From: Escherichia coli
GTDB taxonomy: Bacteria; Pseudomonadota; Gammaproteobacteria; Enterobacterales; Enterobacteriaceae
Reading direction: 5' to 3' (one strand)
Assembly (NCBI RefSeq): GCF_030013595.1
Contig: NZ_CP122768.1
Length of the DNA: 64,000 nt
The position numbers and the translations under genes are program-made. The notes under the pieces were generated by a model. That model worked only from the letters and a program-made list of their open reading frames with translations. It was not told where the DNA came from and did not search any database. Each line of letters begins with the position of its first letter. The first letter of the stretch is position 1. Positions 43,761 to 45,593 of the stretch are shown piece after piece.

Positions 43761-45593
43761 CTACCAAAATCGGGTATAGCCAACATCGTGATTTATATCA
43801 ATGCCACTGGAGCGTGTTTCCGTAACCCGCATATCTGGTGGCATATTTATAAATGATACCTTGATCTCACCATCAACTTTTGGCGCGGTAGCTTTATTAA
43901 TCATGAAGGGATTCGAGCCTGTGGCATCGGAGGCGTTGTTTGCCTGAGCCGGATCCACCGCCGGATAAGGAGTGTATCCCCGTGCCGGTATTCCCGTCCC
44001 ATAAGCATCATAAGCACCCGCGCCCCACTGCGCCGAGTTAAGGGCATCGACCGTGTCACCGGAACTGTCGGTAAACCATTCAATAATCGGCTTCAGCTTA
44101 TCCCACATATCCTGAAACCACTTAACAACCGGTCCCCAGTTATTGATCACCATCCCCAGCGGCGACCTGGCAAAAACCTTCTTCAGAAGTTCCCAGCCAG
44201 CCTCAAAATAAGGACTAATGGTTTCCCAGAGTTTCTTAAAATAAGGTCCGACAACATCCCAGTTAGTGATAATTAATCCCGCAGCCAGGGCAATCGCCAT
44301 CGCAATCATGCCAATCGGCGTCATCGACATGATCCTGCTGACGATACTGATGGCACTGCCCACGCCCATCAATCCCAGTTTCAGAATCGCAAGACCGGCA
44401 GCAAGCCCGACGACGCCGCGAATAACCCGGGGATTTTCATCCGCAAACTTCGTGAATTTTTCCCCCAACTCCCCCAGCCATTGCGTGATATTTTTAGCGT
44501 CACCAGAAAATGCGCCGCCAATAGCTGCAAGACCGTTAGTTGCGGTCCCCGTCATTGCCTCCCACAGGTTGGACAGCGTACCAAGCTGTGCCTGAACACG
44601 TTTATTCAGGCTGGCCTGTTTATTCATCTTCTGCTGGATCTGATCGTAACCATCCTTTCCTTTATCGATCAGAGCATTGACCACCTGAAGGGTTTCGGCA
44701 TCATCACCAAATATTGCCTTAAGTACACCTGTTCGCTTAACGTCGGTCAGTTTTCGCAGCTTTGCCAGTTGCTTAAACATGTTATCAAGACCGCCAAAAC
44801 TCCCTTTGCCGTCAGTAAAATCGAGCTACACTCCGAGTTTCTGGCGGGCCATGACTTTATTGACGTCCCTGATTTTCTTAACGCTTAATCCGGACTGGAT
44901 AACTTTTCGCAGGGCATTACCTGCCGACTCCCCGTTCATCCCCATCTGATCCATCATGACGCTGATAGGGGCAAGGCTCTGTGCAGCCTGAAGACCGTCC
45001 TTGTTCACCATCTTCAGAACAGAACTGGTTTTAGTGAAGAAGGACAACATGTTGGTATCGTCAACGCCCAGATAAAACGCCTTCTGGATAGTGTCGAACA
45101 GCCCCATCATGTCTTCTGACGCCGTTCCGGTAGCATCCTGCATCTTTGCAGCAAACTCAGCAGCCGCTTCCGGTGTTTTTTTCAGTTGTACCGCAAGATA
45201 AGCTGTCGCTTTACCCACACCACCCAGAATGTTTTCTGCCGGGATCCCCTGACGCACCAGCATCTGCATCATGTTCTGGAAATCAGCCGTTGTACCGGGT
45301 AGCTGGTTACCTAGGCCAATAGCCAGTTTATTGATGTCCTGAAAGCTCTTTCCGACCTCACCGTTCGCATCCATCATGGCAACTTTCAGCCCGGTGGCGG
45401 CGTTTTCCTGATCGGCATAAGATTTCAGGGAAAGCGTCAGACCCGCAGCCAGTCCGCCACCAAGCGCCAGCCCACCCTGTGACGCTTCTTCCGCCTGGCG
45501 TTTAAATCCCCGGATTTTCTTTTGCATTTTCGACAGCTCGGGAGAAAGCCTGTCGACACCGGTGATCAACGCCTTAAGCTCAAATTCAGCCAT
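43761..45593 (-). pseudogene. Tail tape-measure protein gene interrupted by an in-frame amber (TAG) codon
   Basis: N-part (45593..44826, 255 aa) and C-part (44780..43761, 339 aa) are in the same frame; the only stop between them is TAG at 44828-44826; read-through would give ...KLGV*LDFTDGKGSFGGLDNMFKQLAK... Confidence 0.65.

Follow-up and report, generated by a model that had tools for sequence, protein, structure and literature searches.

The gene for the tail tape-measure protein (TMP) of an E. coli prophage is interrupted by a premature amber codon in the 64-kb stretch of DNA analysed here, the whole of which we call the window. We put at about 90% the probability that this is an ordinary nonsense pseudogene within a decaying prophage. 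The pseudogene shows no departure from known prophage decay, for which nonsense lesions in structural genes are a well-known mode. The locus offers a dated within-clone snapshot of that process; its added value is modest and consists of a clean order of events and a correction to the annotation.

A single amber codon interrupts the tape-measure gene

The TMP gene, of the SfV orf14 / Mu gp42 type, occupies 43761..45593 on the minus strand and has 610 codons, with 96-98.7% DNA identity to intact TMP genes. The initial annotation had described here two ORFs in the same frame, separated only by a TAG and 15 sense codons, and had interpreted them as the result of a single nonsense lesion in a tail gene. 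On retranslation its coordinates proved exact, and the lesion reading holds as well, since the homologues are one ORF and the one-frame translation of 45593..43761 (-) runs through 611 codons and meets just one internal stop. This stop, the amber at 44826..44828 (-), is codon 256. The N-terminal fragment ORF (44826..45593, -), with 255 aa plus the TAG, corresponds to the product expected if translation terminates there, while the C-terminal ORF (43761..44780, -), with 339 aa plus a stop, starts at an internal Met. The 15 sense codons between the TAG and this ATG (44781..44825, -) are ordinary TMP coding sequence, colinear in the alignment and conserved in the homologues.

Profile searches joined the two parts. 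The N- and C-terminal halves matched positions 230-468 (E = 2e-48) and 481-710 (E = 6.5e-63), respectively, of the phrog_28 profile, and the protein read through with the stop as Gln matched PF10145 (PhageMin_Tail) from one end to the other, at residues 88-296 (E = 1.1e-26). The stop at 256 therefore falls within the sole conserved Pfam domain of the protein, and the 255-aa fragment lacks both the hydrophobic segment (approximately residues 395-450) and the C-terminal part. The gene is preceded by those for the sheath, the tube and a frameshifted chaperone pair and is followed by the baseplate genes; no other gene of the late module has an in-frame stop.

At the DNA level, the TMP gene is 96-97% identical to the uninterrupted genes of phages SfV, SfI, SfII, SKA5 and vB_EcoM-689R6, and, among 5,426 complete E. 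coli genomes, up to 98.7% identical to genes annotated as 'phage tail tape measure protein' in about 900. These intact homologues are uninterrupted and have 610-611 codons. We aligned 15 intact alleles (five phage, ten E. coli chromosomal) and found CAG at codon 256 in every one of them, the functional phages SfV, SfI and SfII included. By this alignment, the TMP lesion is a single C>T transition on the coding strand, converting CAG (Gln256) into TAG. CAG/Gln was one of the two ancestral codons that had been predicted beforehand, the other being TGG/Trp. A Dcm CCWGG site, a deamination hotspot from which amber mutations classically arise, was considered for the C>T change and rejected on its context, GTGCAGCTC.

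The CAG present in 15/15 intact homologues and the position of the stop inside PF10145 indicate that the two TMP ORFs are halves of one gene, and the contiguous phrog_28 matches, the PF10145 domain running across the stop and the uninterrupted homologues exclude a chance juxtaposition of two ORFs. Because its reading frame is interrupted, the locus is a pseudogene, although by descent it is a member of the TMP family.

The gene belongs to a prophage in icd with an intact virion module

The element carrying the gene is an e14/SfV-like prophage integrated in icd. The attachment gene, icd, lies at 58633..59883 (-) and is completed from 58580 onward by a phage-supplied copy, the arrangement known for the attachment of e14 and phage 21 (PMC12803456). 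The displaced native 3' end of icd, at 31043..31257, is 100% identical to that of the empty-site genome HCP5S3_I2 and marks the far end of the prophage. The attachment site is thus duplicated in the window, as icd and the displaced 3' fragment, and is unoccupied in HCP5S3_I2; the positions of the two copies place the prophage remnant at approximately 31.26-58.6 kb. The genes on the right flank are icd, rluE, nudJ, mnmA, hflD and purB. We also compared positions 30336, 31043 and 58580 of the window with HCP5S3_I2; in this genome and in LCP30S3_I5 the icd site was empty and IS10 was present elsewhere in the left flank, so the prophage is variably present in this chromosomal lineage and IS10 is active there.

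The late module is colinear with that of phage SfII. Using the SfII proteins in tblastn, we found the remainder of the virion module (terS through the baseplate gene gp48 and the N-terminus of the fibre; 37753..55547, -) to be free of stops, its 22 genes being full length and their proteins aligning full length at 94-100% identity. Upstream of the TMP gene is the intact gene of the 89-aa tail assembly chaperone (45735..46004, -; PF10109), identical (100%) to that of SfII. It is overlapped by an extension ORF of 60 codons in the -1 frame (45586..45768, -; phrog_32181), which is annotated in phage 689R6 and ends just past the TMP start codon. A slippery heptamer, T_TTT_TTC, lies within the overlap of the chaperone and its extension (45735-45768, -), in the correct frame for a -1 shift. 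In principle, the late module could still be usable.

Between the TMP gene and the DNA-circulation genes there is an ORF of 176 aa (43139-43669, -; phrog_5485), with no function assigned, which SfV, SfI and SfII lack but phage SKA5 and many E. coli prophages carry in this position. It resembles an inserted moron.

The far end of the prophage holds the invertible fibre segment and several cargo genes. The tail-fibre segment, of 1,873 bp (35920-37792), is bounded by the 20-nt inverted repeats AAACGTTGGTTTGGGAGAAG and CTTCTCCCAAACCAAGGTTT, with a Pin-type invertase gene at 35304-35894. A GIY-YIG protein encoded at 34422-35246 (+), the place of mcrA in K-12 e14, matched the PD-T4-3 defence model (E = 2.6e-140). 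Three further cargo ORFs (371, 141 and 173 aa) occupy 31768-34070 (-), between the PD-T4-3 gene and the displaced icd fragment; in this region (31.7-34.1 kb) there was no NCBIfam match, and a scan of the ORFs against the defence library gave a weak WYL-domain match only (E = 0.002). The window also carries two copies of an IS200-family element, each of approximately 707 bp and with an Rfam STnc490 match, which are 100% identical and in inverted orientation. One (5664-6379) lies between dsbB and umuC, while the other (30331-31046), at the junction of prophage and chromosome, is directly flanked by iraM and the displaced icd 3' fragment. An initial identification of these two repeated elements as IS1 was rejected in favour of the IS200 family.

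The amber codon preceded an IS10-associated deletion

At the opposite end of the prophage, between its HNH-terS end and icd, an IS10 of 1,329 bp (56247..57575, +), recognised by an RNA-OUT match, an IS4-family transposase and terminal repeats, replaces 16,912 bp of early and lysis genes. It is followed by an integrase remnant (57576..58519, +) that lacks about the first 66 codons when compared with the 380-aa integrase of CH4794 and of the sister genome described below. We searched the IS10 flanks for a 9-bp target duplication and found none (left flank, GGTTCAACA; right flank, TATTAAGCG).

An otherwise complete prophage with this TAG is found in the sister genome, GCA_900448395.1. We walked outward along it with the HNH, DUF3800 and SIR2 proteins; the terS protein was rejected as a walking query for being too generic (29,389 index blocks). 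Starting from icd, the sister prophage reads int (380 aa), xis, exo, bet, gam, kil and a SIR2_2 cargo gene, then a cI-like repressor, cro/YdaS, YdaT, O, P and further cargo (EmrE-like, esterase), and finally the nin region, Q, DUF3800, holin, endolysin, Rz, Bor, HNH and the module from terS to the tail fibres and the invertase. The window and the sister genome are 100% identical over 5,563 bp of chromosome (57576..63138) and 99.987% identical over 48329..56246, and both matches stop exactly at the ends of IS10. The sister stretch 550,478..567,389 of UFZA01000001.1 (16,912 bp) is missing from the window, which has the 1,329-bp IS10 instead. Lost with it are the 5' end of the integrase gene, xis, and the recombination, immunity, replication, Q and lysis genes, and so, relative to the sister genome, the modules for excision, replication and lysis. 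The suggestion of a decaying cryptic prophage, made initially from the stop alone, is therefore supported by a 5'-truncated integrase and by the replacement of the early and lysis region by IS10.

Since the amber is common to genomes with and without the deletion, it predates the IS10 deletion, and the prophage in which it arose was otherwise complete. The order of events is clear: the amber came first, and the 16.9-kb IS10-associated deletion later. After both steps the 22 virion genes, the fibre invertase and the defence gene are still intact.

Other carriers of the TAG have changed in their own ways. In run SRR19716081 (L011), the DNA-circulation / baseplate hub gene is split into ORFs of 124 and 306 aa (6893-8221, approximately 41749-43083 of the window), a further decay step in a sub-lineage. 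GCA_021649415.1 has 81 substitutions clustered in the portal-protease-capsid region (50289-53341 of the window) and 3 across 15 kb of tail genes, suggesting recombination with a related phage in which the amber allele was retained. The invertible fibre segment is reversed relative to the window in two other TAG-carrying assemblies (L009 and L011), implying that the invertase flipped it within the lineage, after the amber arose.

Expected consequences of the stop

In long-tailed phages, the TMP templates the polymerisation of the tail tube on the baseplate and sets the length of the tail, and amber mutants in the tape measure give no tails. The TMP amber is therefore most simply read as a loss-of-function mutation that would prevent tail assembly. 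It arose once, in a clonal E. coli lineage whose prophage was otherwise complete, and has been inherited vertically since. Ribosomes would be expected to terminate after residue 255 of 610, within the PhageMin_Tail domain, and the truncated TMP would fail to support tail assembly, so that no functional tail could be built, full-length TMP being required as the template for the tail tube. Upon induction, a strain like the sister would then lyse, yet release no infectious particles, and selection on the TMP gene would presumably be absent. In the window, the later IS10-associated loss of 16.9 kb has left the element immobile, unable to excise, replicate or lyse its host.

The changes private to the window allele, relative to the 15 intact alleles, may point in the same direction. 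There are six, namely Q256*, A19E, T432M, W476R, I518L and one synonymous change, and this ratio of 5 non-synonymous to 1 synonymous, on six sites only, differs from the 36:94 seen at the variable codons of the intact alleles (Fisher p about 0.01). Fifteen other late genes had no excess of private non-synonymous changes (10:27 vs 117:411, p = 0.54). The skew is compatible with a relaxed constraint specific to TMP after its inactivation. The lack of a non-synonymous excess and of further stops in the other late genes also indicates that the decay is recent. One of the private changes, W476R (44168-44166), replaces a tryptophan that is invariant in the 15 intact alleles.

Could the stop still allow some useful TMP to be made? 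An amber-suppressor tRNA in the host, the alternative raised in the initial annotation, or basal misreading of UAG by tRNA-Gln, which would put the original Gln back, might let ribosomes through, the stop then acting as a strong down-regulator and not as a knockout. The base after the TMP stop is a C, comparatively weak as the fourth base in E. coli termination-context studies; few copies of TMP suffice per tail; and the rest of the prophage is intact in the sister genome. We nevertheless regard such expression as improbable. The 64-kb window contains no tRNA gene, and hence no suppressor tRNA, its Rfam matches being limited to IS-related and C0299 sRNAs; the stop is limited to one clone; the private changes in the gene are skewed to missense; and the prophage of the window can be neither induced nor lyse its host. 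A survey of in-frame stops in bacteria argues that some are tolerated, being read through and under purifying selection, but ascribes their excess in mobile elements mainly to pseudogenes (PMC7918605). Programmed read-through or recoding as a trait of the TMP family was also considered, and rejected because the stop is not conserved and the other alleles have CAG.

Similarly small is the chance that the knockout of TMP was positively selected as a step of domestication, one that disarms virion production and lets the host retain cargo such as defence genes. The element does carry the PD-T4-3 gene, joined in the sister genome by SIR2_2 and DUF3800 cargo; dozens of isolates retain the allele; and the invertase and its fibre segment still flip. 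A tail defect, however, gives a lysogen no protection from induction and lysis, and thus no evident advantage, and drift or hitch-hiking explains a single clonal origin equally well. Moreover, no parallel TAG or other TMP knockout was found at the site in the other lineages compared.

A further reading, of about the same low probability, concerns the sister strains, whose prophage is complete but for the amber. There UAG-C would act as a leaky throttle instead of a knockout, and rare Gln misincorporation, or recombination with a resident or incoming SfV-like phage, would restore a few infectious particles. If this were true, a prophage that is almost silent yet rescuable, and its defence cargo with it, would be maintained in the lineage.

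The stop is real and the two ORFs are one gene

The reading of the locus as a nonsense pseudogene presupposes that the stop is real. We found the TAG allele, in the same context, in at least seven independent public assemblies or read sets: four NCBI assemblies (GCA_900448395.1, GCA_021649415.1, GCA_036246625.1 and GCA_021646965.1) and three SRA runs (ERR5386556, SRR19716081 and SRR30668371). The seven loci come from different platforms and different projects, and their TMP sequences are 99.95-100% identical to that of the window. In addition, the exact 255-aa product has been deposited as STE02252.1 and is indexed on 39 contigs (65 index blocks). An identical TAG in seven independent loci shows that it is genuine and that, by vertical inheritance, it marks a clonal lineage; the stop at codon 256 is confined to this one clone, all other alleles compared having CAG.

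The complete RefSeq genomes gave a different picture. With a 41-mer query centred on the mutated base, in which each 28-nt seed spans that base, the T version (TAG) was found in none of the complete RefSeq E. coli genomes and the C version in 122 complete E. coli genomes. This absence is what a sequencing or assembly error in an intact gene, the doubt about the base call raised in the initial annotation, would produce. It is explained, however, by the closest complete genomes, HCP5S3_I2 and LCP30S3_I5, which are 99.9% identical to the window on both flanks and have an unoccupied icd site, and the recurrence of the same TAG in the seven loci and of the truncated product on the 39 contigs makes an error extremely unlikely.

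We attach just as little weight to the idea that the tape measure is naturally split into two genes. GenBank, following the gene callers, does list the TMP halves as two proteins (STE02252.1 and STE02251.1), and the best PHROG matches of the halves are not the full-length family but the fragment-sized phrog_26612 (364 positions) and phrog_17727 (443 positions), which overlap the stop region; these families suggest truncated or split TMP annotations in other phage records, at other break points. All the homologues sampled are nevertheless a single ORF with CAG, which runs against the two separate genes named from the start as the finding that would overturn the pseudogene reading, and the stop cuts a single Pfam domain. 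As for the downstream ATG, at 44780, it is an internal Met kept in all the homologues aligned, and the closest Shine-Dalgarno-like motif, GGGAG, lies approximately 19 nt upstream. With this spacing independent initiation of the 339-aa ORF is unlikely, and the ORF is probably an ORF-calling artefact, not a plausible cistron of its own. Both ORFs deserve one annotation as a TMP pseudogene in place of 'bacteriophage V tail protein' and 'minor tail protein'.

Comparison with related phages and prophages

The closest counterparts of the window gene are the TMPs of SfV (orf14), SfI, SfII, SKA5 and vB_EcoM-689R6, which share with it 96-97% DNA identity, a length of 610-611 codons and the same neighbours, with the sheath, the tube and a chaperone with a -1 frameshift ORF upstream, and the DNA-circulation and baseplate genes downstream. 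They differ in being uninterrupted, with CAG at codon 256, whereas the window TMP has TAG and four private missense changes. SfI is a proven infectious myovirus, and its morphogenesis module shares homology and organisation with the modules of SfV and of the E. coli prophage e14 (PMC3636060).

With e14 of K-12 the window element has in common its integration in icd, the displaced icd 3' fragment, the SfV-type late genes, the Pin-type invertase with its invertible tail-fibre segment, and a nuclease/defence gene at the far end, which is mcrA in K-12 e14 and PD-T4-3 in the window. The type of integration is also that of phage 21. The two prophages have decayed differently: e14 retains just part of its late region, as described in PMC3636060, while the element in the window has kept its entire head-tail module and lost the early and lysis part.

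The lesion itself has its parallel in the laboratory amber mutants in tail genes of phages such as λ, which likewise are single CAG>TAG changes in an essential morphogenetic gene. Either kind of amber would be rescued conditionally by a supE host, where Gln is inserted. By contrast, the allele described here is natural and fixed in a clone of wild isolates with no sign of a suppressor, and in the window its prophage has been further disabled by the IS10 deletion.
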